This document shows positions 16,839 to 38,117 of a stretch of DNA of 64,000 nucleotides, piece by piece. The translations under genes were made by a program, and so were the position numbers. Source of the DNA: a virus; IMG/VR virus record IMGVR_UViG_3300046333_000120; one strand, 5' to 3'. Within the stretch, counting starts at the first letter, position 1; every line of letters starts with the position of its first letter. Under the pieces are notes generated by a model, which searched no databases, was not told where the DNA came from, and was given only the letters and a program-made list of their open reading frames with translations.

Positions 16839-18809
16839 ATGTCTAAGAAAACAAATACACCTTTCATTGATCAGTTCGGAGAAGATTTAACTAAAATGGC
16901 AAGCGAGGGCAAATTAGATCCTATTATTGGTAGGGAAAAGGAAGTTTATCGTATATGTCAAATTCTTTCAAGGAGAAAGAAGAATAATCCAATTATTTTA
17001 GGAGATCCTGGTGTTGGTAAAACTGCATTAGTAGAAGCAATTGCACAGCGAATTGTAAATAAGCAGGTTGCAATGACTCTTCTTAATAAGAGAATTGTTT
17101 CACTTAATATTTCAAATATAGTTGCGGGAACGAAATATCGTGGTGAATTTGAGGAACGCATGAAAAACATAGTAGATGAATTAAAAGAAAATAGAGATGT
17201 TATTGTCTTTATTGATGAAATTCATACTATTGTTGGTGCAGGGGGAGTTAGTGGATCTTTAGATGCTAGTAATATATTAAAACCAGCATTAGCAAGAGGA
17301 CAAGTACAATGTATAGGTGCTACAACATTGGATGAGTATAGAGAAAATATTGAAAAGGATGGTGCACTTACCCGAAGATTTCAAGAAGTTTTCATAGATC
17401 CACCATCAATTGAAGATACTATTGAAATTCTTAATAGAATTAAACCTAATTATGAAGATTATCATGCAGTATCATATAGTGATGATGCAATCAAAGCATG
17501 TGTTACTTTATCAGAAAGATATATTACACAAAGAGAATTGCCAGATAAAGCAATTGACATAATGGATGAGGCAGGTGCAAAGGTACATTTAAAGGAAGTT
17601 AAAATGCCAGAGAGTATTAAAGAACTTGAAATTGAGGCTGAAACATATAAAGCATCTAAATTAGTTGCTGTTGAACAACAGGACTATGAGAAGGCTGGTA
17701 AATTTAGAGATTTAGAATTAGCAAAGAAAGAAGAAATCCAAAATTCAACGAAAGAATGGGAAATTTCTTTACGTGATAATAAAAAACAGGTAACATACGA
17801 AGATATTGCTGAAACTATTTCGCAAACAACTGGAATTCCAATTACAAGAATGACTGATGATGAAAATAGAATCATTGTTGAAATGGAAAAGGAATTAAAA
17901 TCCATGATTATTGGACAAGATCTTGCAGTTGAAGGACTTTGTAGAGTTATTAAAAGAAGTAGAACTGGAGTAAGTTCATCTAAAAAACCAATCGGATCAT
18001 TCATGTTTATTGGACCTACTGGAGTTGGTAAAACAGAAACAGTTAAAGCTTTAACAGAATATTATTTTGGAAGTGAAGATGCATTGATTAGGATTGATAT
18101 GTCTGAATATCAAGAAAAATTTAATGTTAGTAGACTTATTGGTTCTCCTCCAGGATATGTTGGATATGAAGAAGGTGGTCAATTAACAGAACAGGTTCGT
18201 CGTAAACCATATTCTGTTGTATTATTTGATGAAGTTGAAAAAGCCCATCCAGATATTTTTAATACTTTATTGCAAGTATTAGATGAAGGTAGATTAACTG
18301 ATACTTCAGGTAGAATTATTGATTTTACAAATACTATCATTATTATGACTTCAAATATTGGAGCAAAACGTGTTGCTGAATTTGGTGCAGGAATTGGATT
18401 TAATAGTACAACGTCATCTGCTTCATATAAAATGGAAATGGAAACAGTTATTAGAAAAGAACTTAAAAATAAGTTTGCTCCTGAATTTTTAAATAGGTTA
18501 GACGATATTGTTTTATTTGATGGATTAAAACAAGAACATGTACTACAAATAGCCGATATTGAAATTAATAAAGTAATTGAAAGAATGGCTGCATTAGAAT
18601 ATTCGATTAAACTTGCAAAAACTGCAATGATTTTTTTAGCAGAAAAAGGATATGATTCACAATATGGTGCTAGACCATTAAAAAGAGCTGTACAATCATA
18701 TGTTGAAGATTTATTGGCAGATTCTATCATTACAGGCCAAGTCGTTAAAGGTTCTAAAGTATATACCATCTCACATAAAAAAGGAGATGAGAAACTTTCT
18801 ATAAAGTAA
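16839..18809 (+). CDS. clpC: ClpC-type AAA+ unfoldase lacking the N-terminal domain
   Basis: Two Walker A motifs (GDPGVGKT, GPTGVGKT), short UVR-type M-domain AVEQQDYEKAGKFRD, GIGF ClpP-docking loop; starts just before LDPIIGR. Confidence 0.9.
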   Translation: MSKKTNTPFIDQFGEDLTKMASEGKLDPIIGREKEVYRICQILSRRKKNNPIILGDPGVGKTALVEAIAQRIVNKQVAMTLLNKRIVSLNISNIVAGTKYRGEFEERMKNIVDELKENRDVIVFIDEIHTIVGAGGVSGSLDASNILKPALARGQVQCIGATTLDEYRENIEKDGALTRRFQEVFIDPPSIEDTIEILNRIKPNYEDYHAVSYSDDAIKACVTLSERYITQRELPDKAIDIMDEAGAKVHLKEVKMPESIKELEIEAETYKASKLVAVEQQDYEKAGKFRDLELAKKEEIQNSTKEWEISLRDNKKQVTYEDIAETISQTTGIPITRMTDDENRIIVEMEKELKSMIIGQDLAVEGLCRVIKRSRTGVSSSKKPIGSFMFIGPTGVGKTETVKALTEYYFGSEDALIRIDMSEYQEKFNVSRLIGSPPGYVGYEEGGQLTEQVRRKPYSVVLFDEVEKAHPDIFNTLLQVLDEGRLTDTSGRIIDFTNTIIIMTSNIGAKRVAEFGAGIGFNSTTSSASYKMEMETVIRKELKNKFAPEFLNRLDDIVLFDGLKQEHVLQIADIEINKVIERMAALEYSIKLAKTAMIFLAEKGYDSQYGARPLKRAVQSYVEDLLADSIITGQVVKGSKVYTISHKKGDEKLSIK

Positions 18810-18847
18810 TAGTATAATATTAAAATAATAACATAATAATATAATAT

Positions 18848-19702
18848 ATGAATAGCTTTTCAAAAGTTTTCAAACAGATAATATCAGATATTAAAGTAAA
18901 TGGAAAGGTCTCTAAACCAAGAGACCTAGAAGTTTCAGAATTAATGTATAATGGATACGCAGTAGATCCTACTCAACCTATTGCAAATTTTAATAATAGA
19001 GAATTCAATTGGAAATACTTTGCCGGAGAATTAGTATGGTATTTAAATAAAGATACTAATATAGATTATATCAATCAATTTTCAGGATTTTGGAAAGGTA
19101 TTACAAATCCAGGTACAAATGAAATTAATTCTAATTATGGTTCTCTTCTTTTTGGTGAACAACTTCAATGGGTAGTTGATTCACTTAAAAAAGATAAAAA
19201 CACAAGACAGGCAATTGCTTTCTTGAATCAACCTAAATACCAATTTGAAGGTAATAAAGATTTTGTATGCACTATGTATCTTAACTTTTCAATTAGAGAA
19301 GATAAATTAGATATGAAAGTACAAATGAGATCCAATGATATTTTTTATGGTCTTACGTTTGATGCACCATTCTTTGCAGTTGTACATCAACATGTTTATC
19401 TTTGGTTAAAATCAACATATCCCGAATTATCATTAGGTACATATTACCATTTTGCAGATAATATTCATTTTTATGAAAGACATTATGAACTTGCTGAAAA
19501 AATAGTAAATGAAACTTTACACCTGGATCAATATACTATGAAATTAAATACTCCACTATTTAATATTGAAAAAGGTAATATGATAATAACAGATCATGGT
19601 ATTAAGATGATACATAATATTAATAAAGGTATTGAAATGGATGCTAACAAAGATTATTATAATAACTTATTAGTAGAATACCTTAATATAAAAAGAGTAT
19701 GA
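18848..19702 (+). CDS. Thymidylate-synthase-fold enzyme, dCMP hydroxymethylase-like
   Basis: Catalytic Cys (DFVCT), MRSND..G..FD, NIHFY. Confidence 0.75.
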   Translation: MNSFSKVFKQIISDIKVNGKVSKPRDLEVSELMYNGYAVDPTQPIANFNNREFNWKYFAGELVWYLNKDTNIDYINQFSGFWKGITNPGTNEINSNYGSLLFGEQLQWVVDSLKKDKNTRQAIAFLNQPKYQFEGNKDFVCTMYLNFSIREDKLDMKVQMRSNDIFYGLTFDAPFFAVVHQHVYLWLKSTYPELSLGTYYHFADNIHFYERHYELAEKIVNETLHLDQYTMKLNTPLFNIEKGNMIITDHGIKMIHNINKGIEMDANKDYYNNLLVEYLNIKRV

Positions 19703-19995
19703 TTAAACAAATGAGTAAAATTCCAGAATTTTATATAGAAGGAGAAAACGCAAGTACTGTTCATAATACATATGAATTTCATAATAGAATTATCGAATTA
19801 ATTGAAACTAATTTAAGTGGAGAATCTAAGGAAACCACTCTATGTCATTTAATATCGGAAGATGGCACGGTGATGACAGCAGATCTACCAAGGAATGCAT
19901 ATAAGCAATCAATATTAAAAAGCTTAGAATTCTATATAGAAAAAGAGAATTATGAGATGTGTACACGAATTAAAAATTTAATAGAACAATTATAA
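19699..19995 (+). CDS. Small protein with C-terminal UVR-like motif
   Basis: YIEKENYEMCTRIKNLIEQL; immediately upstream of clpP. Confidence 0.65.
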   Translation: MIKQMSKIPEFYIEGENASTVHNTYEFHNRIIELIETNLSGESKETTLCHLISEDGTVMTADLPRNAYKQSILKSLEFYIEKENYEMCTRIKNLIEQL

Positions 19996-19997
19996 AA

Positions 19998-20675
19998 ATG
20001 AATTACGGAAAAGAATTTGAAAAATACGCGATGAGCGACCATGGAATTAGTTCTATTAATATGCACTATGCTAAAAAACAATTAGAAAATGCATTGACTC
20101 CTTATATTTTAGAGGAGAGAGAATTACGAGCAACCCAGATGGATATTTTTTCAAGATTAATGATGGATAGATTATTATGGGTAGCAGGTCCTGTGAATGA
20201 CAATATGTCTACTATAGTACAGGCTCAATTAATGTTCTTAGATTCTTCGGATGATAGGGATATTACAATGCATATTGATTCAGGAGGAGGAAGTGTAAAA
20301 TCCGGACTTTCGATGGTTGACGTTATGGAATATATTAAATCTGATATACGTACAGTCAACACGGGAATAGCAGCCTCTATGGGTTCTGTTTTATTAGGAG
20401 CAGGAACTAAGGGTAAGAGAAGTTCTTTAAGGCACTCTACCGCTATGTTACATCAATCTTCAGGAGGATTTAGTGGAAATATTCAAGATGCTGAAATCGA
20501 TTGGGCAGAATGGCAAAAAGTTAACAAAGAATTATTTACTCTTTTAGGAAAATATTGTGGTAAAAAGCCTGAGCAGGTTATGAAAGATGCTACTAGGGAT
20601 TTATGGTTGAATGCAGAAGAAGCGTTAAAGTATGGAATTATAGATGAGATTATAATATCAAAAAAAATAATATAA
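19998..20675 (+). CDS. clpP: ATP-dependent Clp protease proteolytic subunit
   Basis: DIFSRLMMDR, AASMGS (Ser), LHQ (His), RDLWL (Asp). Confidence 0.95.
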   Translation: MNYGKEFEKYAMSDHGISSINMHYAKKQLENALTPYILEERELRATQMDIFSRLMMDRLLWVAGPVNDNMSTIVQAQLMFLDSSDDRDITMHIDSGGGSVKSGLSMVDVMEYIKSDIRTVNTGIAASMGSVLLGAGTKGKRSSLRHSTAMLHQSSGGFSGNIQDAEIDWAEWQKVNKELFTLLGKYCGKKPEQVMKDATRDLWLNAEEALKYGIIDEIIISKKII

Positions 20676-20684
20676 TAACATAAT

Positions 20685-20882: not shown

Positions 20883-20907
20883 TATATTAATATAATACTA
20901 AAATAAT

Positions 20908-21222: not shown

Positions 21223-21283
21223 GATTATGATAATATAATTCATTTTTATAATTTATTTCCATGTTAATTTTGATAAATATAGT

Positions 21284-22016: not shown

Positions 22017-23237
22017 ATGGCATACGTTGTACAGGATGATATAATTGCAAGTATAGATTTAACATTTAATCTTAAACAAGGAGAATCTCAAATATATGAA
22101 ATAACGTTAGACCGTGATTTCATTGGAAACCAATTAAACGCAAGGGCAGTCACATCAATATCAGTTGGTATATTAAATTCATCGGGTAAAAAAGTACTTA
22201 TGTATAATAATCCAATGGTGCCAGGGGTTTCGGATACTCTTATATTTGCAGATGTTTCTGAAAATAAACCTGGAGTTATACGATTTGAAATTACATCTTC
22301 TCAATCTCTTTCAATTACAGGTGGACAATTAAATGCACAAGTTACTTTAGTTTTTTCTGATTTTTATCCAAATGCAAAAACATATATTATGCCATTATTA
22401 TTGTTAGGCCAAGTTATTGAGGCAGATCCTATCGATGGAGGTGGAGGAACAACGACTCCATCTACTGGGTTAGGAGCACCTTTATATACTATAGAGCATA
22501 TTGATGGTAACTATCCAAGTCAATATGGAAAAATGTCAATAAATTCACAAGATCCTACTCTAATTACCGAAATTACTTTTAGAAATTTAGATAAAAATGC
22601 AGTAAGAGCCACTATTCTTGAAAACTTTCTTGTTAATAGAATGGGAGCAGATCAAATTGATGGTATAATTACTTTATTCGATACAAATAATTCAAAATTT
22701 TATACTTTATATAAAATAATAGGATGGCAACGAGTTGATATTACAACAGGTAACGGAAATACAGATAATACAGATGGAATTAAAATTAGAGTTGTATTAG
22801 AAGGAATTTCAACAGGACCTGGCGTTTTAAAAACAAGATGGAATATGGGAGATAATGTTACATTCTCAATAGATACCCATGGTATTACAAAAAGTTCAAT
22901 TAAACCAACTGGAATATTAACGTTTGCCGATAAAAATAAAAAGGTAACGATTGCAACTAATGGAAATAATTCCCCAACAGGCGCACATATTAGTTATTCT
23001 CCATACTATGATTCTTACGTTATAGTGGAAATCAATGGAATTAGTATAGATCTTGGAAATAATAGTAAAAATGCAACTGCATATTTTTCAGGAAATAATG
23101 GATTAACCGCTGTTCAAATTGAATCAATACGAGAAGGAGACCAATTAATTTGGAATGGAGATATTGCAGGATATGAATTAGAATTAGGCGATGAGATAAA
23201 CTTAATATATGAGGTTAATGTTGATGATTTAAGATAA
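22017..23237 (+). CDS. Putative virion structural protein
   Basis: Beta-rich; C-terminal domain paralogous to that of 28204-28962. Confidence 0.55.
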   Translation: MAYVVQDDIIASIDLTFNLKQGESQIYEITLDRDFIGNQLNARAVTSISVGILNSSGKKVLMYNNPMVPGVSDTLIFADVSENKPGVIRFEITSSQSLSITGGQLNAQVTLVFSDFYPNAKTYIMPLLLLGQVIEADPIDGGGGTTTPSTGLGAPLYTIEHIDGNYPSQYGKMSINSQDPTLITEITFRNLDKNAVRATILENFLVNRMGADQIDGIITLFDTNNSKFYTLYKIIGWQRVDITTGNGNTDNTDGIKIRVVLEGISTGPGVLKTRWNMGDNVTFSIDTHGITKSSIKPTGILTFADKNKKVTIATNGNNSPTGAHISYSPYYDSYVIVEINGISIDLGNNSKNATAYFSGNNGLTAVQIESIREGDQLIWNGDIAGYELELGDEINLIYEVNVDDLR

Positions 23238-23404
23238 TTTAAAAATTGATTTTTTTAATTTTTTATTTAAAAATAATCATATAATATATCAAAATCAATA
23301 AAATCATATAAAATCATATTAATATATAATACAGTTACAAACAATTATGCGAGTAACTCCATGGACAATAAAGTTTATGGGCCTAAAAAAATTATATATT
23401 ATAA

Positions 23405-25432
23405 ATGGCACAAATTCGTTCAAAACAAATTGCAGACTTTTTATCATCAGTAAACTGGGCTTCTGTTAACTCTACAGACATTGCAAACGCAGCTGACATT
23501 AAAGCATTAGTATCTTCTGAGATCGCTGCAGTAAATGGAGACAACACTGAATTATCAAATGGTTTAGCACAAGAAATTATCGATAGAGCAGCTGGTGATG
23601 CAACTTTATCTACTGACATTCTTGCAGAGTACACTAGAGCTACTAACGCGGAAGATAACATCAACATGGGTTTATCGTTTACTATGACTACTATCTTTGA
23701 TGAAACCAGTAGAGCATTTACAGCTGAAGGTGTTTTATCTACTGACATTCTTGCAGAGTACAATAGAGCATCTTTAGTTGAAACTGGTTTATCTGCTGAA
23801 ATCGTTGCTGAAATCGGTGCAGTAAGAGAAGAAATGAATGGTTTAGAAACAACATTAGAGTTAGCTGATTCTAATTTAGACGCAAAAATCACTACTGAAA
23901 AAGGTAGAATCGATGCAATCTTATTAGCATCTGATGCTGACAAAGATTCATTCGCTGAAATCGTTTCTTTAATTAATGGTGTTGATACCACTAACGACAA
24001 TGCATTCGCAGGATATGTATTATCTAACAATGCATCAGTTGATTCATTAGAAGTAGCTATCACTGGAGACTTTAATTCTATCGACACTAGATCTTTAGAT
24101 TTAGAAAATGCTTTAGCTGCTGAAATATCTGCAACTAATGCAGATGTTACTTCTATCGATTTAGCGATCGCTGCTGAACATTCTCATCACACTGCTGCTG
24201 AAGTTTCTTTAGAAAACGCTTTAACTGCTGAAATCTCTGCAACTAATTCTGACTTCGTAAGAGTTGAAGCTGCTTATGCTGCTGCAGATTCTATTGAAAA
24301 AGTTAGAGCTGAAGCTGCTGAAGAAGTATTAACTGATAATTTATCTGCTTTATCTACTGAAGTTGTTAATGAAGTTGCTTCTATCGATACAAGATTAGGT
24401 TCAGTTTCTGGAGATTTAGTTTCTTCAGTTGATTCATTAGAAGTTGCTTTAACTGCTGAAATCTCAGTTACTAATTCTGACTTCGTAGTTGTTAACTCAT
24501 CTATTGATTCATTAGAGGTTGCTTTAACTGCTGAAATTGATGCAACTGATGCTGACTTCGTAGTTGTTAACTCATCTATTGATTCATTAGAAGTTGCTTT
24601 AACTGCTGAAATCTCTGCAACTAATTCTGATTTTACTTCAGTTAATACTAGAGTTTCTACTGAAGAAGCTAGAGTTGACGCTATCTTATTAGCTTCTTCT
24701 GCTGATAAAGATTCATTCGCTGAAATCGTTTCTTTAATCAACCAGGTTGATACTACTAATGACACTGTGTTTGCAGGATATGCTTTAGCTACAGATGCAT
24801 CTATTGATTCATTAGAATTAGCCATCGCCGGAGATTTTACTTCTATCGATACAAGAGCTACTAACTTAGAAACTGCTTTATCTGCTGAAATCTTAGCAAC
24901 AAACACTGACGTTACTTCATTAGAGACTTTAGTTTCTAATGAAATCGATGACATGACACAGTATGTTGGCGGTAATTTTGCTGCTTTAAATACTGCTGAT
25001 TTTATCGAAACAGCAAGAGCTATCGCAGCTGAAGGTTCATTATCTACTGACATTCTTGCAGAGTACAATAGAGCTACTAATGCTGAAAACGACATCAGCA
25101 TGAATGTCTTTATCGAAACAACAAGAGCTATCGCAGCTGAAGGTTCATTAGAAACTTCTATTGGTTCATTAGAAACTGCACATGATGCTAGATTAGATTC
25201 GTTAGAAGGCTACATTATGGAAGATGCTCAGGAATTAACTGAGAAATTCGTAGGTGCTGGTTATTCTTATACATTATCTAATAGTGTACAAGATGGTAAC
25301 AAATACCTAGTTAAAGCATATGTTAATGGAGTATTCGTTGAAGTTACTTCTGTAGTTGGTGCAATTGCAACAGTGTCTACATCTTACGCTATTGACGGTG
25401 ATGATAATGTAACTTTCACTTACCAATTCTAA
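23405..25432 (+). CDS. Acidic, repeat-rich coiled-coil fibre-like protein
   Basis: 25-aa repeats DSLEVALTAEI (75-nt period at 24431/24506/24581); duplicated RIDAILLAS.ADKDSFAEIV module; strong codon bias. Confidence 0.65.
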   Translation: MAQIRSKQIADFLSSVNWASVNSTDIANAADIKALVSSEIAAVNGDNTELSNGLAQEIIDRAAGDATLSTDILAEYTRATNAEDNINMGLSFTMTTIFDETSRAFTAEGVLSTDILAEYNRASLVETGLSAEIVAEIGAVREEMNGLETTLELADSNLDAKITTEKGRIDAILLASDADKDSFAEIVSLINGVDTTNDNAFAGYVLSNNASVDSLEVAITGDFNSIDTRSLDLENALAAEISATNADVTSIDLAIAAEHSHHTAAEVSLENALTAEISATNSDFVRVEAAYAAADSIEKVRAEAAEEVLTDNLSALSTEVVNEVASIDTRLGSVSGDLVSSVDSLEVALTAEISVTNSDFVVVNSSIDSLEVALTAEIDATDADFVVVNSSIDSLEVALTAEISATNSDFTSVNTRVSTEEARVDAILLASSADKDSFAEIVSLINQVDTTNDTVFAGYALATDASIDSLELAIAGDFTSIDTRATNLETALSAEILATNTDVTSLETLVSNEIDDMTQYVGGNFAALNTADFIETARAIAAEGSLSTDILAEYNRATNAENDISMNVFIETTRAIAAEGSLETSIGSLETAHDARLDSLEGYIMEDAQELTEKFVGAGYSYTLSNSVQDGNKYLVKAYVNGVFVEVTSVVGAIATVSTSYAIDGDDNVTFTYQF

Positions 25433-25457
25433 TAAGATCCTAGATTTTATTCTGAAT

Positions 25458-25485
25458 AAAGGGTCTCTTCGGAGACCCTTTTTTT
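25458..25485 (+). terminator. Intrinsic terminator with UUCG loop
   Basis: gggtctc-ttcg-gagaccc-ttttttt. Confidence 0.88.
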
Positions 25486-25519
25486 ATAAACAAATATATA
25501 AATAAAATAAATACTTTTC

Positions 25520-26716
25520 ATGAAAATAGGAATCACCATCGGTCTGACAAAGGAAAATGAATCACTTTGGATTAATGGAATTAAACTAAATGCATTATAT
25601 TTAGCAAACACTCTATTAAATATAGGAGAACATGATGTGTGGATTTTAGACACATCTGATAAAGTCGAAGATCTTACTAAAGTGCAATGGGACACTACTA
25701 AATTCCCAATATATAAATTTAAAGAAAAATTTAAAGAAATAGATTTACTTATAACATTAGGTACATCAATACCTGAAAATTGGTCTAATGCAATAAAAAC
25801 TGCAAATCCAAATGCTAAAATAGTAAAGTACCAATGTGGTAATAACTATGTGGTAGATATGGAAAGAGTTTTATTTGGAGATCCAGATGCAGAAGGGATT
25901 CCATCTTGGGATAAAGGACATGATGCAACATGGACAATACCCCAACAAGAATATCACAATAAAGAATATTTTCAATTAATATATAGACAAAATCCAGAGG
26001 ATGTTAAAATAGTTCCATTTGTATGGGATCCTATGTTTATTGATAGAAATAGTGAAACGCTTAAATCGCTTGGCAAAAAACATCCACAGTACATACCTAA
26101 ACCGGCTTCCGAAAAGAAAATTTCAGTAATGGAACCAAATTTAAATGTGGTAAAATATGCACTTATACCTATAATGATTACTGAGGCTTTTTTTAGAAAA
26201 CTTGGAGAAAATTCATTTAAACAATTATATGTAGGAAGTGGTAATAAATTATTAAAAAATAAATATTTTCTGGGAATGATTAAAAACCTAGATATAGTAA
26301 ATAGAAAAAATCCACTTATTAAATTTGTGCCAAGGTATCCAGTAACTACATTCCTTGCAGAGGAAACTGATATAGTATTAGCACACCAATGGGGAAATCC
26401 ATTAAATTATTCATATTTAGATGCTATTCATTTTGGGTACCCAGTAGTACATAATGCAGATTTTATAAAAGATGCTGGATATTATTATAAGGACTTTTCA
26501 ATATTCGGAGGAATGGAACAATTAGATCTTGCAATAAATCAACATGACAATAAAATAGAGGAATACAAAGAAAGGAATAAAAAAGTATTAGATAGATACC
26601 TATCAACTAATCCTGATGTTGTAGATACATATAGAAAATTAATAGAGAATTTATGGGATCCTAATAAACATAAATTATCATACAAATATAACTGGAAAAC
26701 AAATACATATAAATAA
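25520..26716 (+). CDS. DUF2827-family protein (glycosyltransferase-like)
   Basis: MKIGITI...WINGI, MEPNLNVVK, HQWGNPLNYSY. Confidence 0.7.
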   Translation: MKIGITIGLTKENESLWINGIKLNALYLANTLLNIGEHDVWILDTSDKVEDLTKVQWDTTKFPIYKFKEKFKEIDLLITLGTSIPENWSNAIKTANPNAKIVKYQCGNNYVVDMERVLFGDPDAEGIPSWDKGHDATWTIPQQEYHNKEYFQLIYRQNPEDVKIVPFVWDPMFIDRNSETLKSLGKKHPQYIPKPASEKKISVMEPNLNVVKYALIPIMITEAFFRKLGENSFKQLYVGSGNKLLKNKYFLGMIKNLDIVNRKNPLIKFVPRYPVTTFLAEETDIVLAHQWGNPLNYSYLDAIHFGYPVVHNADFIKDAGYYYKDFSIFGGMEQLDLAINQHDNKIEEYKERNKKVLDRYLSTNPDVVDTYRKLIENLWDPNKHKLSYKYNWKTNTYK

Positions 26717-27483
26717 TGAGTGAATTATCAAATTTAATGGAATCAATCGATAAACAAAAAATATCGATAATAATGCAGTCTTATCTTGGAGATTATCCAG
26801 GTTCTAGAACCGACTCTATATCTAAATTTAGAAGAGCAGTTAAAAGTTTTCAAAATCAACTATATAAAAATTGCGAATTGATTATAGTATCAGATGGTTG
26901 TACCAAAACACACCAGATTTACACTAGAGAATTCAAAAATGATCCTTCAATTAAATTTATATTTGTGGATAAAGATACGCCAAACATGTATGAATTAAAC
27001 AAGGATGGGCATAAATATTATAGAGGATTTCCAAGAAGAGTTGGTGTTGGCGCTGCCACAGGTTCTTTAATAACATATATGGATTCTGATGATTTCTTAT
27101 TACCTGAATTCACATTAACTTTATTACTTACGTATAATATGAACACTGAATTAGAATGGTGGATCAACACCGAATGGTATGATAATGAAAAGGCAGAATG
27201 GGAAGATAGCCCTGTAATTTTCGGAAGTAATCATACTGAAGATATTGAAATAGAAGGTCTTTCCGGAAAATGGACAAAAACATCAATAAAACCAGGCATG
27301 GCAGTTTTAAGTCCATGGTTATTAATGCATAAAGCAACCTGCACCACCAAATGGAGAGATGTAATTGGAAATAGTGAAGACTCTGATTTTAATAAGAGAC
27401 TTAGAATGGATTATAAAAATGGAACTACACTTAATAAACCAATATATGCAAGATGTCATTATAGAGATGTATGGGATATTTAA
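26716..27483 (+). CDS. Glycosyltransferase family 2
   Basis: ISIIM, ELIIVSDG, YMDSDD, SED motifs. Confidence 0.8.
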   Translation: MSELSNLMESIDKQKISIIMQSYLGDYPGSRTDSISKFRRAVKSFQNQLYKNCELIIVSDGCTKTHQIYTREFKNDPSIKFIFVDKDTPNMYELNKDGHKYYRGFPRRVGVGAATGSLITYMDSDDFLLPEFTLTLLLTYNMNTELEWWINTEWYDNEKAEWEDSPVIFGSNHTEDIEIEGLSGKWTKTSIKPGMAVLSPWLLMHKATCTTKWRDVIGNSEDSDFNKRLRMDYKNGTTLNKPIYARCHYRDVWDI

Positions 27484-28067
27484 TCTTTATTTAATGATTT
27501 TTTAAATATATCAGCACAAATGGCGAGATATTCTTTTTTAGAATCCTCGTCATTTTTTATATACCATGAATATGCCATTGAGTTTTCATATCTTGCAATA
27601 TCTCCTTTAATAATAGAAATATTTTCAGATATATTATTAATCTCGTCAATTCCTAATTCATCAAATTCAATATCTAATTCCATTGCAAGTTTAAGTAACA
27701 TTCCCCAATCATGATTGGTATTTGCATCATTTAAATCTTCGTATGCTTTTTTAAGAAATTTAGTTTCACTTAAATTAATATCTCCTAACTTATCCGGATG
27801 ACATTTTACTGCAATCTTTCTAAATAACTTTTTAAATTTAGGGTCATCGTTGTTAGTTATTTCTGAAATTTCCGTATCTTCTTCTTTTATTTCAATGTTA
27901 ACTTGAACTTGATTCTTTGGAGCAAGAGCTTCAACTGCTTCTGGATCTGATGCAAGAAGCGCATTTCTAAACTCTCCCTCAGCAACATTTGAAATTTCTT
28001 TAACATCATCTAGGGTTTCATTTAGATAATTATAGTCTCTAATAAGTTTCTTTAATATAGGATTCAT
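27480..28067 (-). CDS. J-domain-containing protein
   Basis: KKLFRKIAVKCHPDK (HPD motif). Confidence 0.7.
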   Translation of the reverse strand: MNPILKKLIRDYNYLNETLDDVKEISNVAEGEFRNALLASDPEAVEALAPKNQVQVNIEIKEEDTEISEITNNDDPKFKKLFRKIAVKCHPDKLGDINLSETKFLKKAYEDLNDANTNHDWGMLLKLAMELDIEFDELGIDEINNISENISIIKGDIARYENSMAYSWYIKNDEDSKKEYLAICADIFKKSLNKD

Positions 28068-28203
28068 GTAGTATTTATTCTAATTATATTAATATATTCT
28101 TGTAAATAATATATAGCATATAGATATATTATGAATATATAGTATTGAGTAAGATTAAATAAATAATCTTTTTATAGAAAAAACAAAAAAAAAATAAAAA
28201 TCT

Positions 28204-28962
28204 ATGTCACAAATTAAAATCAAGCAGGTTGAAGGTTTACAAGCTGTATTGGATGCAATTGGTGTCGGGTTACAATCTGGATCTTTAAAGTCTACATATA
28301 CGCAAATTGCCCATGGCTTTTCTGCAGGAAGTGTAGTTGCTTTCTTAAATGGATCCTGGGTTTTAGCAGATGCATCATCAGCAGAGAAACTAGGTAGACT
28401 AGTTGTTGAAAGTGTAACCACCGATACATTTGTTGGAGTACAAATTGGTAATATTGAAATTATAGGATGGGGTCTTACACCTGGAAAATTCTATATGGTT
28501 GATGAAACTGGAAATGGAACAGTAGTTGAACATTTATCTCCATCGATACCTAATTTCAAGTATAGTAATCCAGTTATGCAAGCCTTAACTACAAATAAAG
28601 CCCAAGTTCTTCCATGGAGACCAAGTCTAGGAGCCACTCCACTTGCGCAAGGACAAGAATATACCCAAACTGCGCAATCAGCATATACCAGTGGAAATGG
28701 TTCAAATACTGGAATTTTCTTGGATTATACTCCATTCGCAGATTCAACTGTACAGGTATACATTAATGGTATTGCAGTAACAGAATCTTATGGAAATAAA
28801 GATGGTGAAGCATATTTTTCAAATGACAATGGAATAACAGCAGCAGCAATTCCAGAATTAATAGCAGGATCTAAATTATATTGGAATCCAAGTAATGCAG
28901 GTTATGAAATAGGTAATGGAGATACGCTTGATTTAGTATATGAAAAAAGTTCATTAGATTAA
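28204..28962 (+). CDS. Putative virion structural protein
   Basis: N-terminus similar to 23405, C-terminus similar to 22017. Confidence 0.55.
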   Translation: MSQIKIKQVEGLQAVLDAIGVGLQSGSLKSTYTQIAHGFSAGSVVAFLNGSWVLADASSAEKLGRLVVESVTTDTFVGVQIGNIEIIGWGLTPGKFYMVDETGNGTVVEHLSPSIPNFKYSNPVMQALTTNKAQVLPWRPSLGATPLAQGQEYTQTAQSAYTSGNGSNTGIFLDYTPFADSTVQVYINGIAVTESYGNKDGEAYFSNDNGITAAAIPELIAGSKLYWNPSNAGYEIGNGDTLDLVYEKSSLD

Positions 28963-28990
28963 TAAAATAAAACAAAAAAAATAAAAAAAT

Positions 28991-30625
28991 ATGTCAATTA
29001 CACCGTACATTTCTACCTCGGGTCCACAGGGGTTTAAAGGTTTTCAAGGTTTTCAAGGTATTATCGGCGATCAAGGAGGAACTGGTTCGCAGGGATATCA
29101 AGGTCAAATAGGTATGCAAGGAGACCAAGGTTTTCAAGGTCTTAAAGGAGATCAAGGAGAATTAGGATTTCAAGGAATAAGTGGAACCAGTATAACTGGA
29201 GCACAAGGTTTCCAAGGTAATCAAGGTTTCCAAGGTAATCAAGGTCTTAAAGGAGATCAAGGTATTGTAGGTACAACTGGTAATACTGGAGCACAGGGTA
29301 ATCAAGGTTTCCAAGGTAATCAAGGTTTTAAAGGAGATCAAGGTTTCCAAGGTAATCAAGGTCTTAAAGGAGATCAAGGTATTATAGGTACAACTGGAGC
29401 ACAAGGTAATCAAGGTTTCAAAGGAGATCAAGGTTTCCAAGGTAATCAAGGTATTGTAGGTACACCTGGAGCACAAGGTATTGTAGGTACAACTGGTAAT
29501 ACTGGAGCACAGGGTAATCAAGGTTTCCAAGGTATTGTAGGTACAACTGGAGCACAGGGTTTCCAAGGTAATCAAGGTATTGTAGGTACAACTGGTAATA
29601 CTGGAGCACAAGGTTTCCAAGGTAATCAAGGTCTTAAAGGAGATCAAGGTATTGTAGGTACAACTGGAGCACAAGGTTTCCAAGGTAATCAAGGTATTGT
29701 AGGTACAACTGGAGCACAAGGTTTCCAAGGTAATCAAGGTATTGTAGGTACAACTGGAGCACAAGGTTTCCAAGGTAATCAAGGAACAACTGGAGCACAA
29801 GGTTCTGTTGGATCTCAAGGTTCAGTTGGAGCACAAGGTGCAACTGGTTCTACGTCGTACACAGCAGGAACCGCAAACTTTTTAAATACAAACACGCAAT
29901 TAACATACGGCGCAAGTGGTTTAAATTATTTTAATTTAGCAAGTGCCGCAGGATCTAATCCTGCATTAAATCAAACGCCTACAAACGACTGGTACCATAT
30001 CACACGATACAACCATGCAAACTCAGCGGGTTATTATGCAGATTTAGCAATTGGTATGACAACTGCAGGTACTGAAATGTGGGTAAGAAGAATTTCAGGC
30101 GGAAGTGGAACTGCATGGACAAGAATGATAGACACTAATAATATAGGATCTCAGTCTGTAAATTATGCATCTACTATAGGAATTAATTATAACAACGATT
30201 CCGCTTCAACGTATCAAATGTTATGGGGTTCTGGAAACTCTGTATATGGTACTGCAGGAATTTACTGTAACCCATCAACCGATACTCTATATTGTACAGG
30301 TGATGTTATTGCAGCAGCTGCCTCTGATAGAAGATTAAAGGATAATATTAAACCTATTGAAAATCCTTTAATTAAAATATCTAAAATTGGAGGTTATACA
30401 TTTGATTGGAATGATAAACAAGAAGTTTATACCGGAAATGACATTGGAGTTATTGCACAAGAAATTGAAGAAGTGCTTCCACAACTAGTAGAAACTAGAA
30501 AAAATGGATATAAGGCAGTTAAATATGATAAGATTGTTGCATTATTAATAGAAGGTATAAAAGAACAACAAAAACAGATCGATGTATTAACATCAGAAAT
30601 CGAAATATTAAAAATAAATAAATAA
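28991..30625 (+). CDS. Collagen-like tail fibre with C-terminal S74-like chaperone
   Basis: Long G-X-Y region (GFQGNQ, GIVGTT, GLKGDQ); SDRRLKDNI...GVIAQEIE. Confidence 0.88.
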   Translation: MSITPYISTSGPQGFKGFQGFQGIIGDQGGTGSQGYQGQIGMQGDQGFQGLKGDQGELGFQGISGTSITGAQGFQGNQGFQGNQGLKGDQGIVGTTGNTGAQGNQGFQGNQGFKGDQGFQGNQGLKGDQGIIGTTGAQGNQGFKGDQGFQGNQGIVGTPGAQGIVGTTGNTGAQGNQGFQGIVGTTGAQGFQGNQGIVGTTGNTGAQGFQGNQGLKGDQGIVGTTGAQGFQGNQGIVGTTGAQGFQGNQGIVGTTGAQGFQGNQGTTGAQGSVGSQGSVGAQGATGSTSYTAGTANFLNTNTQLTYGASGLNYFNLASAAGSNPALNQTPTNDWYHITRYNHANSAGYYADLAIGMTTAGTEMWVRRISGGSGTAWTRMIDTNNIGSQSVNYASTIGINYNNDSASTYQMLWGSGNSVYGTAGIYCNPSTDTLYCTGDVIAAAASDRRLKDNIKPIENPLIKISKIGGYTFDWNDKQEVYTGNDIGVIAQEIEEVLPQLVETRKNGYKAVKYDKIVALLIEGIKEQQKQIDVLTSEIEILKINK

Positions 30626-30629
30626 AGAT

Positions 30630-31040
30630 ATGAATATCAAATATGAATTCACAAATTTAGATTTAAAGGCAGCTCCTTCTATGGATGGTATGGAAATGGT
30701 AATTACCAGAGTATATTACACATATAGAGCAACCGATATCGATTCTAATATATACGCAGATTATGAAGATTTTCATAATTTTGAATTATCATCTAATTCA
30801 CAATTTATGCAGTTTGAAACGCTAACTAAAAATGATATAATAGGATGGTTAGAGGCAAGTGTAGATACTCTACCAATTCGACCTGTATTATCAAATAGAG
30901 TAGAAGACTACGTAACTTCAAAATATGTTTCGGTAAAGTCTCCATGGGATTCTGACGTAGTTGAGTCTAATTCTACATTAGTTGAACCGGAAGTTACAGC
31001 AGCTGAACCTGAAGTTACAACAACTGAACCAATAGTCTAG
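30630..31040 (+). CDS. Putative fibre-associated protein
   Basis: FMQFETLTKNDIIGW...PW motif common after phage fibre genes. Confidence 0.5.
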   Translation: MNIKYEFTNLDLKAAPSMDGMEMVITRVYYTYRATDIDSNIYADYEDFHNFELSSNSQFMQFETLTKNDIIGWLEASVDTLPIRPVLSNRVEDYVTSKYVSVKSPWDSDVVESNSTLVEPEVTAAEPEVTTTEPIV

Positions 31041-31060
31041 ATACAATATGTTTATTAATT

Positions 31061-31089
31061 AAGGGACCCTTTATTGGGTCCCTTTTTTT
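31061..31089 (+). terminator. Intrinsic terminator
   Basis: aagggaccc...gggtcccttttttt. Confidence 0.8.
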
Positions 31090-31148
31090 GTGATATATAA
31101 TCATATAATATAATAATAAACTAATTTAATATTAACAATATAATAATC

Positions 31149-32102
31149 ATGGCAGACATTATATCACACTCGACATCTTTACCCAATATACGAATGTATA
31201 TTGATTTTGTAGAAAAAAAAGAATCTACTTATAATTTAATAGGATGGATTGTTGCAACAAATGGTAAAATTACAAATATTAAACTATCAAATTCTAAACC
31301 ATCTAATCTTTCTTCGGAATTTATAGATAGAGTAGATGTTAATGCGCTTTATCCAAATTTAAAGGATGTTGCTATTGAATTTAGAATTTCTATTAGCGAA
31401 CTTGATACATTTGAAAATATTATAGTTTCTGTGTTAGATAATAACACTAATGAAATTATAGATTATGAAATAAATTCTTTCGCAAAATGGATAGCATACT
31501 ATTCTGGATTTTCAAATGATGATAAAGGACTAATTGTTGTCGATAACTTTTATTCAAATCCTGATTTTGTCAGAGAATGGGCAATGAATGAAATTAAGTT
31601 TTCTCCATCTGCATATCATAAAGGAGAAAGAGCAATTAATCGTTTTTCTATTAGTGGAACAAAGGAAAAACTAGAAAAAATAATAGGAAAACCAATATAC
31701 AATTGGAATTATGATGCATACGCAAATGGAATATTTCAATTTTGTACAGCAGATCAACCTATTGTATATCATGTGGATAATCAAACATACGCTGGAATTG
31801 TATTTTTAACACCAGACGCACCGGCATCTACTGGAACTGCATTCTACAGAAGTAAAGTAACTGGAGATTATAGATTTGATGATGAGAAAAGACAAACTAT
31901 AAATTATGTTAGAGCATTCCAAGGAAAGAGTGCAGAAATGAATTTTTATGATGGAACAAATTTTGAAAAAATAGATGAAGTAGGAAACATATATAATCGA
32001 TTAGTACTTTTTGATGCAAAGAATATCCATGCAGCAACTCAGTATTTTGGAGATAAAATAGATAACTCTAGATTTTTTCATATGTTTTTCTTTGATGTAT
32101 AA
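31149..32102 (+). CDS. 2OG-Fe(II) oxygenase-like (DUF6445-type) protein
   Basis: IVVDNFY.NPD, HVD, YNRLVLFD...IHAA, distal R. Confidence 0.7.
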   Translation: MADIISHSTSLPNIRMYIDFVEKKESTYNLIGWIVATNGKITNIKLSNSKPSNLSSEFIDRVDVNALYPNLKDVAIEFRISISELDTFENIIVSVLDNNTNEIIDYEINSFAKWIAYYSGFSNDDKGLIVVDNFYSNPDFVREWAMNEIKFSPSAYHKGERAINRFSISGTKEKLEKIIGKPIYNWNYDAYANGIFQFCTADQPIVYHVDNQTYAGIVFLTPDAPASTGTAFYRSKVTGDYRFDDEKRQTINYVRAFQGKSAEMNFYDGTNFEKIDEVGNIYNRLVLFDAKNIHAATQYFGDKIDNSRFFHMFFFDV

Positions 32103-34169: not shown

Positions 34170-34199
34170 ACTTTTTTGAATATTCACATATAATATTAT

Positions 34200-34436: not shown

Positions 34437-35151
34437 CGTATCAAATTTAAAATCAATGTTATTTATTGACATTGAAACAGTTTCAGAATTTAAATATTAT
34501 AGTGAGTTTTGTGAAAACAGACCAGGTGCAATAATTCATTGGATAAAGAAAGCAGATAATTATCGAAGAACTGAAATTGATTGTGCAGAACTAAGTGATG
34601 CAGATCTTTATTTAAAAAATGCAGCATTACATCCTGAGTTTGCAAAAATAATTGTAGTTTCAATTGGTCAAATTCAGTTTGATGAAAATGGAAATCCAAT
34701 TAATGATAAAATTAGATCATTTTATGGAGATGATGAGTCAGTTTTTTTACATGAATTCATGGGAACTATTCAAGCAATCTTTAATAAGAATTCAAATATT
34801 CAATTTGTTGGACATAATATTAAAAACTTTGATTTTCCTTTTCTAATTAAAAGATCAATAATCAAAGGCATTCAAGTACCTCATCAATTGCATCTACAAA
34901 ACAAAAAGCCATGGGAAAATTGTTTATTAGATACTTATGACATTTGGAAATTTGCGGGATGGGGTAGTGCATCACTTGATTTAATATGTGATACATTAAG
35001 TATTCCATCACCTAAATCTTTAATGAAAGGCGACGAAACTACTGAAGAATATTGGAATGGAAATCTAGAGAAAATAAAAACATATTGTGAAGCTGACGTT
35101 AAATCAACAATGAATGTTATGCTTAAATTCTCATATAAATCTATAATTTAA
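34429..35151 (+). CDS. PolB-like 3'-5' exonuclease (DnaQ superfamily)
   Basis: FIDIET, GHNIKNFDFPF, YCEADV. Confidence 0.85.
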   Translation: MYSVSNLKSMLFIDIETVSEFKYYSEFCENRPGAIIHWIKKADNYRRTEIDCAELSDADLYLKNAALHPEFAKIIVVSIGQIQFDENGNPINDKIRSFYGDDESVFLHEFMGTIQAIFNKNSNIQFVGHNIKNFDFPFLIKRSIIKGIQVPHQLHLQNKKPWENCLLDTYDIWKFAGWGSASLDLICDTLSIPSPKSLMKGDETTEEYWNGNLEKIKTYCEADVKSTMNVMLKFSYKSII

Positions 35152-35155
35152 GAAT

Positions 35156-35983
35156 ATGAAAGTATGGGCATACGTTACTGTTTGGAATGAGGAGAAGATG
35201 CTCCCATATTATTTAAGACACTATTCTCTATTTTGTGAAAGAATAATAGTATTAGATAATAAGTCAACAGACAGCACTCTAGACATTTGCAAGCAATGGC
35301 CAATGGTAGAAGTTAGGGAATTTGATACCAATGAAACATTTAATGATTATGTACATTTAGATTTAAAACATAAATGTATTGAAGAGTCTAAGGGAAATGC
35401 AGATTATATTATAATAAGTGATTGTGATGAATTTATATACCATCCTAATATTATTCAATTTTTACAAGAAAATAAATATCCAGTAATATTTCCGGCAGGT
35501 TTTCAAATGGTTTCACATTCATTTCCAACAGGAGAAGGACAAATATATGATGATATAAAAACTGGAGTTCCAGATCCATGGTATTCTAAACCTATTATTA
35601 TTAATCCAAATAAAATAGAATCTTTAATATGGATAGAGGGTTGCCATGAAATAGAATTATATTCTAAATTTGATGGAGAAATATTACATCCAGTTCCAAT
35701 TCAAATTAGACCAATAGGAGAATGGAATGGACATCCATGGGGAAGATGGAAGATGCAATTCGAAATACTAGATACCTATAATGATTTTCCGATAAAGTTA
35801 TTACATTATAAATTTATGGGTTCTGACTACGTTAAATCTAAATATGCACAATATGTTTTTAGAAATAGTAAACAAAACCAAGACGCTGGATTGGCAAATC
35901 ATTATAAGATTGCAATTGAAGGAAATAATATTGAAAATGAAATAAATACATTAATGAATAAAACTATTATAGTAAATTGTTAA
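35156..35983 (+). CDS. Glycosyltransferase family 2-like
   Basis: NEEKMLPYYLRHY, DNKSTD, DCDEF, LLHYK. Confidence 0.8.
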   Translation: MKVWAYVTVWNEEKMLPYYLRHYSLFCERIIVLDNKSTDSTLDICKQWPMVEVREFDTNETFNDYVHLDLKHKCIEESKGNADYIIISDCDEFIYHPNIIQFLQENKYPVIFPAGFQMVSHSFPTGEGQIYDDIKTGVPDPWYSKPIIINPNKIESLIWIEGCHEIELYSKFDGEILHPVPIQIRPIGEWNGHPWGRWKMQFEILDTYNDFPIKLLHYKFMGSDYVKSKYAQYVFRNSKQNQDAGLANHYKIAIEGNNIENEINTLMNKTIIVNC

Positions 35984-36056
35984 TAACTTTTATAAAATAA
36001 TTAGCCAAACATTTTTTTGTTTGGCTTTTTTAGTTATATTTACATTATAATTAAAA
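35979..36056 (+). promoter_or_regulatory. Terminator plus class I promoter cassette
   Basis: GTTAATAAC box, agccaaac/gtttggct hairpin with T-run, tatatttacattataattaaaa; near-identical to 40974-41054. Confidence 0.75.
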
Positions 36057-36069
36057 TAGATAAAAAAAC

Positions 36070-36354
36070 ATGGAAGACTTTGACCCTAATGAATTATTTG
36101 AAGAAAATAACGAAATTGAAACTATAAAAAAAGATGCACAAATGGAAGATGCACTGTATGCTTTGAAATTAAAACTTGCAAATGAAAACTATGAAATGAT
36201 AGTTGAGAAGGGAATCGATATTAAGTCCATGAGAAAAAATGGTCTAGATATTGATGCATTAGAAACAACGTTAAAGGTTATGTTAGATTTATTTATTGAA
36301 TTAGAGGAATATGAAAAATGTTCAAAGATTAAAGATGTTATTGAACAAATCTAA
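36070..36354 (+). CDS. Small protein with C-terminal UVR-like motif
   Basis: FIELEEYEKCSKIKDVIEQI. Confidence 0.65.
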   Translation: MEDFDPNELFEENNEIETIKKDAQMEDALYALKLKLANENYEMIVEKGIDIKSMRKNGLDIDALETTLKVMLDLFIELEEYEKCSKIKDVIEQI

Positions 36355-36384
36355 AATATATAATATATTAATAAATTAAATAAT

Positions 36385-36519
36385 ATGAACGAAGAATTAT
36401 TAAAACAAATCGCTGAAAGTCTTGTTAGAATTGCAATATGCATGGAAAATAAACAAGCAAGAGAAGTTGCTGAAAATAAAAAGAAGTTACAAGAATCTAA
36501 GAAATCATCTAGTAAATAA
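36385..36519 (+). CDS. 44-aa hypothetical protein (not in ORF track)
   Basis: MNEELLKQIAESLVRIAICMENK...SSK*. Confidence 0.55.
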   Translation: MNEELLKQIAESLVRIAICMENKQAREVAENKKKLQESKKSSSK

Positions 36520-36521
36520 AT

Positions 36522-37322
36522 ATGAATTACTACGAAACACTTAATGTTTCACAGGATGCATCGTCAGACGATATTAAAAAATCGTATAGGAGATTGGTAA
36601 AACAATACCATCCAGATAAAACAGGTGGAGATGATATTCAATTTAAAAAAATATCAGAAGCTTATGAAATTTTAGGAGATCCTGATAAGAGAAAGAAGCA
36701 TGATAGTAAAAATAATAAACATGCATCTGCATCCTATGGATTTAGCAATGAATGGGAAGATATTTTTAATAAATATGATTTTTCAAATATGTTTGACCAA
36801 TCATTTGGTGCTAATGCCAGAGGTAATGATGTTAGAGTCTCAATAAATATAACAATAGAGGAAAGCTATGAAGGAACAAGAAGATACATCGATGTCGGAA
36901 CTGGTGGATTTAATATTAATATACCTAAGGGAATTCCGAATGGCACGAAACTTAAAGTCAAAGAAAAAGGTCAAAGCCATCCAATTAACTCAAGCGCCAC
37001 AAGGGGAGATATAATATTAACAGTAAATGTTTTACATGATATTGATTTACTAGTGAATGGACATGACATCTTTATAGATTTATATCTAGATTGGATTGAT
37101 ATGCTACTTGGCGGTGAATTTGATGTAAAAACAAAGGTACATAATGTAAAAATTAAAGTGCCACAAGGTTCACATGATTCTAAAATACTTAGAGTTATTG
37201 GTAAAGGAATGCCAATATATAACTCAGATGGATTTGGTAATTTAATGGTTAAACTTAGAAACTTACCAATTAATTTAACAGAAGATCAAATAGAATTATT
37301 AAAAAAGATAAAAAGTTCGTGA
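36522..37322 (+). CDS. dnaJ: DnaJ/CbpA-type co-chaperone (no Zn finger)
   Basis: NYYETL...YHPDK J-domain plus DnaJ C-terminal domain. Confidence 0.88.
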   Translation: MNYYETLNVSQDASSDDIKKSYRRLVKQYHPDKTGGDDIQFKKISEAYEILGDPDKRKKHDSKNNKHASASYGFSNEWEDIFNKYDFSNMFDQSFGANARGNDVRVSINITIEESYEGTRRYIDVGTGGFNINIPKGIPNGTKLKVKEKGQSHPINSSATRGDIILTVNVLHDIDLLVNGHDIFIDLYLDWIDMLLGGEFDVKTKVHNVKIKVPQGSHDSKILRVIGKGMPIYNSDGFGNLMVKLRNLPINLTEDQIELLKKIKSS

Positions 37323-37573
37323 TGGATGAATTAGAAGAAAATGGATACGATGAAACGAAATTTATTAAAAAATTACAAGAATCCTCAAAGGACGAAATGA
37401 TGGATTTAATATATCATTCTATAGTAAATGAAAGAATGGGTGCTTTAAAACACAATGCACCTATCGAAGATAAAATAGAAGGAGTTCAAAAGATTTTAGA
37501 TTTTTTTAAAGAAAGAGAAGAATATGAAAAATGTATTGAACTTAAAAAAATAATAGATAAACTATCATGTTAA
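37319..37573 (+). CDS. Small protein with C-terminal UVR-like motif
   Basis: FKEREEYEKCIELKKIIDKL. Confidence 0.65.
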   Translation: MMDELEENGYDETKFIKKLQESSKDEMMDLIYHSIVNERMGALKHNAPIEDKIEGVQKILDFFKEREEYEKCIELKKIIDKLSC

Positions 37574-37746
37574 TATCAAATGTAGAAAATGGAAATATAG
37601 AAAAAGCACTTAAAAATCTTAAGCGTAAAGTTTTTTTAACCAAACAAACACAAGAACTTAAGGAAAGAAAGGAATTTGTAAAACCATCTATTAAAAAAAG
37701 AGAAATAATTACAAAGGCAAAATATATCCAACAAAATATAATATAA
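37567..37746 (+). CDS. rpsU: Ribosomal protein bS21 (not in ORF track)
   Basis: MLISNVENGNIEKALKNLKRKV...ELKERKEFVKPSIKKR...KAKYIQQ. Confidence 0.9.
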   Translation: MLISNVENGNIEKALKNLKRKVFLTKQTQELKERKEFVKPSIKKREIITKAKYIQQNII

Positions 37747-37845
37747 TAACATTTTTATCCCTGGGAATTAATTCATATATCCATCTAAATATATAATAAA
37801 GATAAAGTATATTAATACTTATTCTATTAAAAACAAACAATACAG

Positions 37846-38103
37846 ATGGAAGAAGTTACAAGAGATGAAAGAGACTCTTTAATGAGATCCAGCTACTACA
37901 TAATAACTAGAAATTTTACAAAAACCGTTAATAGGTTTATTGTATATCAAGATAGCAAAAATACAATAGATATTCCACATGGAATTGGACAAAGAAGTAT
38001 GTTCATCGATCTTCTTATAGAGTATTTTGTAGAGTTGGAAGAATATGAAAAATGTGATACACTAAAAAAGTTAAAAGAACTTGTCATTATGGCAGGTGAT
38101 TAA
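37846..38103 (+). CDS. Small protein with C-terminal UVR-like motif
   Basis: YFVELEEYEKCDTLKKLKELV. Confidence 0.65.
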   Translation: MEEVTRDERDSLMRSSYYIITRNFTKTVNRFIVYQDSKNTIDIPHGIGQRSMFIDLLIEYFVELEEYEKCDTLKKLKELVIMAGD

Positions 38104-38117
38104 ATATACTTAAATTT

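Follow-up and report, generated by a model that had tools for sequence, protein, structure and literature searches.

A large family of small phage proteins with a probable divergent UVR hairpin, and a possible partner for a phage ClpC without N-domain

The unfoldase ClpC is normally controlled via its N-domain, on which adaptors, phospho-arginine and antibacterial peptides act. We describe here a 64,000-nucleotide stretch of viral DNA (IMG/VR record IMGVR_UViG_3300046333_000120, called the window in what follows) that encodes a ClpC naturally devoid of this domain, a ClpP peptidase and four small proteins, hereafter A to D, sharing the motif E[EN]YE[KM]C close to their C-terminus. These four proteins are paralogues of a large viral, phage-specific family with what is very probably a divergent UVR hairpin. 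This hairpin is most likely a protein-docking surface, and A would be the likeliest partner of the tip of the ClpC M-domain in this clade.

One of the closest described systems is that of Staphylococcus aureus, where residues F436, R443 and D444 at the tip of the ClpC M-domain make the head-to-head contacts of an inactive resting state (PMC5699869). A ClpC deprived of its N-domain (delta-N ClpC) is proteolytically inactive, and combining this deletion with F436A, R443A or removal of the M-domain gives an activity on GFP-ssrA equal to that of MecA-activated ClpC (PMC5699869; PMC12583610), MecA itself requiring the N-domain (PMC5699869). [quoted passage not shown] Like the proteins considered here, CLPF, EXE1/2 and UVR2-4 carry a UVR domain next to varied other domains; unlike them, they belong to a eukaryotic organelle, their UVR domain is canonical and CLPC1 keeps its N-domain (PMC8889267). 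Among phage proteins, SPO1 gp53 is likewise a small protein proposed to reprogramme a ClpC protease, but it acts on host ClpC (PMC6873191), and no sequence relationship to it was found.

The clpC gene of the window (16839..18809, + strand) encodes a ClpC-type double-ring AAA+ unfoldase of 656 residues, as established by alignment to S. aureus ClpC and by Pfam. Over its full length it aligns to residues 155-798 of the 818 residues of S. aureus ClpC (E-value 4e-223) and its PHROG match begins at profile position 168, which shows that the N-domain, of about 150 residues, is absent. Clp_N (PF02861) has no match in the phage protein, nor in five related contigs (up to 87% complete) read in all six frames, in a search that matched 10 of 14 control genomes, and the ClpC open reading frames (ORFs) of the relatives are 659-695 residues long. 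Both AAA+ modules, the lid and the D2-small domain are recognised (Pfam AAA, AAA_lid_9, AAA_2 and ClpB_D2-small). The protein has the layout of the ClpC subfamily of class I Hsp100 proteins, with two AAA+ modules and a short, single coiled-coil M-domain bearing a UVR motif, and its sequence groups with ClpC-type loci having short M-domains; the N-terminal Clp_N repeat domain of this class is the one element missing. The M-domain coiled coil spans residues 257-335 approximately (17607..17843, + strand), as delimited by the S. aureus alignment, by the hhalign range and by the PF02151 (UVR) matches of the relatives, whose M-domains pass with 23-30 bits. Its UVR motif covers residues 257-296, with AVEQQDYEKAGKFRD at residues 275-291; by alignment, the tip residue Tyr283 (17685-17687), located in DYEKAG, is equivalent to S. 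aureus F436, and Arg290 and Asp291 to R443 and D444. The IGF tripeptide of the ClpP-docking loop (residues 519-521; 18393..18401, + strand) corresponds in the alignment to the A-G-F loop of S. aureus ClpC, and GIGF (residues 518-521) fits the D2 docking loop [IVL]-G-[FL]. The initial annotation, made from the letters of the window alone, had proposed a ClpC without N-domain that keeps a UVR-type M-domain and the IGF loop, and these three features are all confirmed. The loss of the N-domain recurs among phage ClpCs, as such a protein is also encoded by the unrelated 635-kb uncultured huge phage LR745206 (L178:2884-4989; a 701-residue ORF, 54% identical).

The partner peptidase ClpP (225 residues; 19998..20675, + strand) was rightly described as intact and as adjacent to the gene of protein A. 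It matches PF00574 (E-value 6e-56) and, aligned to solved ClpPs, has a full-length fold with the catalytic Ser (in GIAASMG), His (in MLHQ) and Asp (in TRDLW); it also has an N-terminal extension of about 31 residues, which is spanned by the profile of its best NCBIfam match, PRK14514. The phage protease thus resembles MecA-activated ClpC/ClpP of Bacillus subtilis and S. aureus by its short M-domain, with Tyr283 at the place of the residue, F436, that controls the resting state, as well as by its ClpP-docking loop and intact ClpP. It differs from it in that MecA needs the N-domain and in that no MecA homologue is detected for the phage. It further resembles S. aureus delta-N ClpC, which needs release of the M-domain for activity, except that the loss of the N-domain is not engineered but natural, and conserved across the clade. 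If the phage ClpC acts like that of S. aureus, a ClpC that has lost the N-domain but conserved Tyr283, Arg290 and Asp291 should require something to open the contacts of the M-domain, and a mimic of the M-domain tip would, by analogy, be a reasonable candidate for doing so.

Two relatives have a clpC gene of altered structure. In G005, it is split by about 1.5 kb (L085; 63273-64556 and 66106-66876), and both pieces match residues 398-430; the appearance is that of a mobile element inserted with duplication of the junction, like the phoH case of the window. In G008, a pair of ORFs that overlap near residue 490 makes up clpC.

Across the six frames of the window there are exactly four occurrences of the motif E[EN]YE[KM]C (at 19945, 36304, 37517 and 38038), each one 10-15 residues from the C-terminus of a small + strand ORF, so that the four proteins with a common C-terminal motif noticed initially are real. 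A (98 residues; 19699..19995, + strand), found by the motif search, carries the variant ENYEMC; B (94 residues; 36070..36354, + strand) is encoded by the first gene after a terminator at 36003-36026 and has its hairpin module at residues 57-94; C (37322..37573, + strand) has 83 residues counted from its ATG; and D (85 residues; 37846..38103, + strand) represents the most widespread group. The start of gene C, first placed at 37319, is corrected to the ATG at 37322, which overlaps the stop codon of the preceding dnaJ gene and agrees with orthologues beginning MDELEE. The last residues of the four proteins differ (IEQL, IEQI, KLSC and MAGD). None of the four has a Pfam or NCBIfam match to the known families of ClpC adaptors (MecA, McsB/McsA, ClpS, MdfA), and the sole PHROG match is a weak one, of B to a DNA-polymerase family (E-value 0.0085). 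A second motif in B (LANENYEM), considered as an internal repeat, is unsupported by hhalign.

In metagenomes, A to D each belong to a separate group of orthologues. A profile search finds more than 610 close homologues, an exhaustive one 290 clusters at 50% identity, and the five related contigs searched whole contain 3-5 copies each. Nearly all of the 148 representatives listed retain Y-E-x-C, and in an alignment of 146 sequences the Cys and one Glu are invariant, while the Tyr and a second Glu are at least 90% conserved.

Models obtained with AlphaFold2 for A and D, with mean predicted local distance difference test (pLDDT) values of 87.6 and 91.5, share the same order of elements, i.e. helix, beta-hairpin, helix-loop-helix. 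In D, helices are predicted at residues 6-22, 24-29, 49-63 and 67-82 and strands at 31-35 and 40-43; in A, the hairpin helices are at residues 65-81 and 85-97. In both, the motif lies at the tip of the helix-loop-helix, on the loop and the first part of the last helix. According to these models, the family domain comprises about 75 residues (helix, beta-hairpin, helix-helix) and ends in a divergent UVR hairpin with a Y-E-x-C tip, and A and D are paralogous over their full length, as versions of one small domain. The N-termini, described initially as unrelated, are therefore not so in A and D, which have the same predicted fold and 46 columns aligned by hhalign; comparisons between profiles of the paralogue groups give 23-34 C-terminal columns in common, with about 33 for B and C with the others. 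Nor is it supported that the N-termini of A and D are separate, substrate-carrying parts, since together with the hairpin they make up one compact fold.

Comparisons of this fold with solved structures give nothing specific. Searching PDB sequences with a profile of the family gives chance-level matches only, and a Foldseek search of model D against the PDB gives nothing at E-values up to 0.001, PipX and a McsA/McsB entry appearing only at noise level. A fold assignment by VIA-align was discarded, its best Z score of 6.6, for generic helical bundles including BAG domains, being in the noise range for helical proteins.

The domain also occurs in other arrangements. Metagenomic proteins of 200-250 residues (P0126-P0143) have a DUF3846-like N-terminal domain fused to a C-terminal EEYEKC domain, EEYEKC being invariant across this group; the contigs with this fusion form are 13-24% complete, so that the absence of ClpC from them is uninformative. 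G020 (35% complete) carries a stand-alone member of 93 residues.

The initial annotation had read the C-termini as UVR motifs, and this reading can be retained in part. The UVR motif of the UvrB C-terminus, UvrC and the ClpC M-domain is a helix-loop-helix hairpin of about 35 residues with an aromatic residue at its tip, and this is what is modelled for A and D (pLDDT 89-97 over the block), with an in-register core [DE][FY]E.[small][small]..[RK][DN]. In the family, unlike in UVR, an invariant Cys replaces the first Ala of the AA pair, R-D is mostly K-[DNK], helix 1 has Y/F where UVR has Ala, and the hairpin forms part of a larger domain (helix, beta-hairpin, helix-helix). When the 38-column module is compared by hhalign with a 656-column profile of full-length ClpC-type proteins built from 33 sequences, its sole match is the M-domain (257-296), in register over 37 columns (E-value 0.027), a score reached by 8 of 300 column shuffles. 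Through this register and the ClpC alignment, the Tyr of EEYEKC falls on S. aureus F436. Seven of the 146 family representatives match PF02151 at E-values up to 1, and one of them, P0227, does so with 23.6 bits, above the gathering score of 21.5 bits that defines membership, exactly over its hairpin. Searches of the Atlas by language-model features and by shape each give, as leads only, viral clusters in which 24-32% of the members are PF02151-positive; the shape match superposes residues 43-85 on such a partly UVR-bearing cluster with a root-mean-square deviation of 2.4 A over 43 residues. We conclude that the EEYEKC proteins very probably form a large phage family whose hairpin is a divergent version of UVR. 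The hairpins of the four copies of the window are below Pfam-level membership of UVR.

In the relative G001, a protein of 251 residues (L094:844-1599) ends in a canonical UVR motif (LHAVADENFERAAELRDAIAKNL; 28 bits on PF02151, thus exceeding the gathering score). The clade has thus, beside the EEYEKC family, also a protein with a variable body and a canonical UVR tail.

Protein A is the member tied to ClpC by its genomic position. Between clpC and gene A lies a gene of the thymidylate-synthase family (18848..19702, + strand; PF00303, E-value 6e-20; phrog_160); this gene, the first one after clpC, is not clpP. The start of gene A overlaps the stop of this thyA-like gene, A ends 2 nucleotides before clpP, and no terminator-like site separates clpC, thyA, A and clpP. 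In contigs encoding a ClpC of 76-85% identity, an A-type gene follows that of ClpC at a distance of about 1 kb, and in L013 it stands directly before clpP; in G001, ClpC, ThyA, A and ClpP, followed by B, DnaJ, C, D and PhoH, are all encoded within 11 kb. More generally, a ClpC without N-domain is present in 26 of 48 contigs bearing D and, where completeness is 59% or more, in 8 of 9. Modelling of a complex between A and residues 1-345 of the phage ClpC, which include the M-domain, gives weak support: a score of 0.39, compared with 0.00 for the best of three controls, the runs agreeing in 100% of their contacts and the partner having a pLDDT of at least 80.

A may then, as a tentative proposal, dock on the tip of the ClpC M-domain and regulate this ClpC; gene content, family, predicted fold, relationship to UVR and synteny are what the analysis shows, and from them we infer binding to the M-domain and activation. 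Co-transcribed with the N-domain-less ClpC and ClpP in this clade of jumbo phages, A would present a mimic of the M-domain tip, with its Tyr in the place of F436 and its Lys in that of R443, and this mimicry would switch on, and perhaps direct, a ClpC unable to use adaptors of the N-domain. C, in the same scheme, would more probably serve DnaJ, its translationally coupled neighbour, than ClpC, and no partner is proposed for B and D.

A number of results weigh against this proposal. (i) As regards the hairpin, PF02151 has no match in the four proteins of the window at E-values up to 1, nor in any of 62 close homologues at E-values up to 10; a six-frame search of five relatives with PF02151 finds only the ClpC M-domain (23-30 bits) and one 251-residue ORF, and the hhalign probability of the match between the module and the M-domain is only 1.8%. 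Moreover, the hairpin packs against the N-terminal helix in the models of A and D and forms no free tail. (ii) As regards the complex, of 80 solved complexes 58 reach the mark used, as do 2 of 110 mismatched pairs, counts that hold only roughly with the custom alignments used here, and passes with scores up to 0.60 comprise 7 of the 80 solved complexes and both mismatches; the score obtained with A lies in this band, where passes are mostly wrong, and no interface is reported. (iii) As regards co-occurrence, which had been put forward as a check of the link between the family and N-domain-less ClpC, the presence of both in one clade is inseparable from shared ancestry, and only A is tied to clpC and clpP, B, C and D having no specific link to clpC. 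No family member was found in LR745206, a negative that is weak, in a search that gave 3-5 members per positive-control contig. (iv) As regards other genomic contexts, gene C is translationally coupled to dnaJ, whose stop codon its ATG overlaps; DnaJ followed by an EEYEKC gene is an adjacency that persists where DnaJ is only 33-35% identical; and further members have a primase-helicase on one side and an SNF2 helicase on the other, or are neighbours of a holin-like gene. No ClpC homologue is found in the 59-kb, 98%-complete phage IMGVR_UViG_3300024581_000623, nor in two phages that are 78-79% complete, each of the three carrying one member (E-value about 1e-8); a phage ClpC is therefore no obligatory companion of the module. 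In the 98%-complete phage, the member is a gene of 78 codons (L198:5950-6186) that overlaps the end of a gene for an 805-residue primase-helicase (BT4734-like, PriCT, DUF5906) and precedes an SNF2/ResIII helicase. The initial annotation had named, as refuting its own model, a family common in phages without ClpC and showing no interaction with host ClpC; with this phage, the first half of that refutation is observed.

These contexts are what the strongest alternative builds on, in which each protein is a small subunit specific for its neighbour and binds the product of the adjacent gene (A that of clpP or clpC, C DnaJ, others the primase-helicase), the hairpin being a structural core or an element of self-association. 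We regard it as a serious possibility, if rather an unlikely one. The phage DnaJ (36522..37322, + strand) is a co-chaperone with a J domain and a DnaJ_C domain (PF00226, E-value 3e-22; PF01556, E-value 1e-26; also NCBIfam), whose Pfam and NCBIfam matches cover no zinc-finger region, i.e. a type II, CbpA/Sis1-like layout. Its gene is flanked by the EEYEKC genes B and C, followed by a gene for a 59-residue homologue of ribosomal protein bS21 between C and D (37567..37746, + strand; PF01165, E-value 7e-11). In Escherichia coli, CbpM modulates CbpA, and C could by analogy modulate the zinc-finger-less DnaJ in the same manner. The coupling of C to dnaJ and the persistence of this pairing with divergent DnaJs, the members found in replication and lysis contexts and in ClpC-less phages, and the inclusion of the hairpin in a compact bundle in A and D all fit such neighbour-specific subunits. 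Against them, the tip E-E-Y-E-K-C is near-invariant among paralogues that are otherwise 20-25% identical, which suggests one common ligand, and no similarity to CbpM or to MerR-type proteins is seen in Pfam.

There is also a wider form of the tip-mimic proposal, which we consider unlikely: the EEYEKC hairpins in general would cap the M-domain as mimics of its tip and open the resting state of the N-domain-less ClpC, activating and programming it independently of the N-domain, and the same hairpins would hijack a ClpC-type machine of the host in the phages without ClpC. In this form, the invariant Cys, with its spacing of i to i+4 relative to a conserved Glu, might provide a further contact dependent on metal or redox state. 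More unlikely still, all of them might be UVR mimics directed at the host, targeting the M-domain of host ClpC or ClpB, McsA, UvrB or UvrC, and either deregulating proteolysis or blocking excision repair, with the phage ClpC being incidental. The occurrence of the family in ClpC-less phages means that a partner not encoded by the phage must exist there, and the tip resembles that of the M-domain. SPO1 is not known to carry a ClpC of its own. Its protein gp53 is a known phage modulator of host ClpCP (PMC6873191), and activated M-domain mutants of ClpC are toxic in cells (PMC5699869). The conserved place of A in the phage clpC-clpP unit argues instead for a phage partner, at least for A.

The model of the initial annotation, in which the four proteins are interchangeable adaptors docking on the phage ClpC M-domain and delivering different substrates at different infection stages, appears improbable. 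It is favoured by the common tail with varying N-terminal sequence, by the complex score of A and by RATATATA-type motifs at 36355, 37214 and 37788, which are upstream of a 44-residue ORF, C and D but not of B. The tie of A alone to clpC and clpP, and the coupling of C to dnaJ, speak against interchangeability, and the small common fold of A and D leaves little room for a separate substrate-binding head. The arrangement of the genes does not fit separate stages either. A and C have no upstream intergenic DNA, so that A is without promoter space of its own and shares the unit of ClpC and ClpP, while B, the 44-residue ORF (36385-36519), DnaJ, C and bS21 form an uninterrupted series behind a single terminator. 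A terminator at 16741-16764 precedes clpC and another, at 36003-36026, precedes B; no + strand terminator-like site is found between the former and 21300, nor from 36026 to 38900. A T4-late-like sequence, TATAAATA, is present at 16824-16831, just past the terminator at 16741-16764 and 8 nucleotides upstream of the clpC ATG, and scans for sigma-70-type promoters give no better result than shuffled sequence, so that they speak neither for nor against the promoter classes I to III that the initial annotation had assigned to the four genes. The four genes thus lie in about three co-directional units at most, and not in four stages.

Finally, that the small proteins are substrates of ClpCP and their conserved C-terminal region a degron is very improbable: an N-domain-less ClpC with opened M-domain does recognise C-terminal ssrA-type degrons via its pore (PMC12583610), but the conserved part is here a folded hairpin 10-15 residues from the end, and the actual C-terminal residues differ among the four proteins.

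The window is AT-rich (about 30% GC), with nearly all genes on the + strand and no tRNAs. No close relative of it was found among isolated phages by nucleotide search, and no relative of D by nucleotide and tblastn searches. ClpC matches among the records of isolated phages were set aside; they are mostly short, unannotated records with phage names (several of Listeria, Enterococcus and Staphylococcus phages) and may be bacterial DNA. The largest related IMG/VR contigs are of 234 kb with an estimated completeness of 87%, which indicates a clade of jumbo phages of roughly 270 kb. Between the ClpCP and DnaJ clusters, eight genes, one of them a collagen-like tail-fibre gene (28991-30625), form a block at positions 22017-32102, located between a gene of 233 codons and a glycosyltransferase-like gene of 611 codons. 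As these two are adjacent in G001 (L013), the block is a variable insertion that pushes the two clusters apart.

The link of the hairpin proteins to the regulation of the phage protease and chaperone is weakly supported. The clade, whose ClpC has lost the N-domain but kept a repressive M-domain, is a natural experiment on how ClpC is switched on without ligands of the N-domain. A is a concrete candidate, testable in vitro; opening of the M-domain tip alone activates delta-N ClpC according to the literature. The EEYEKC domain itself is a very large, unannotated viral family, and finding its ligand would annotate thousands of hypothetical phage genes.

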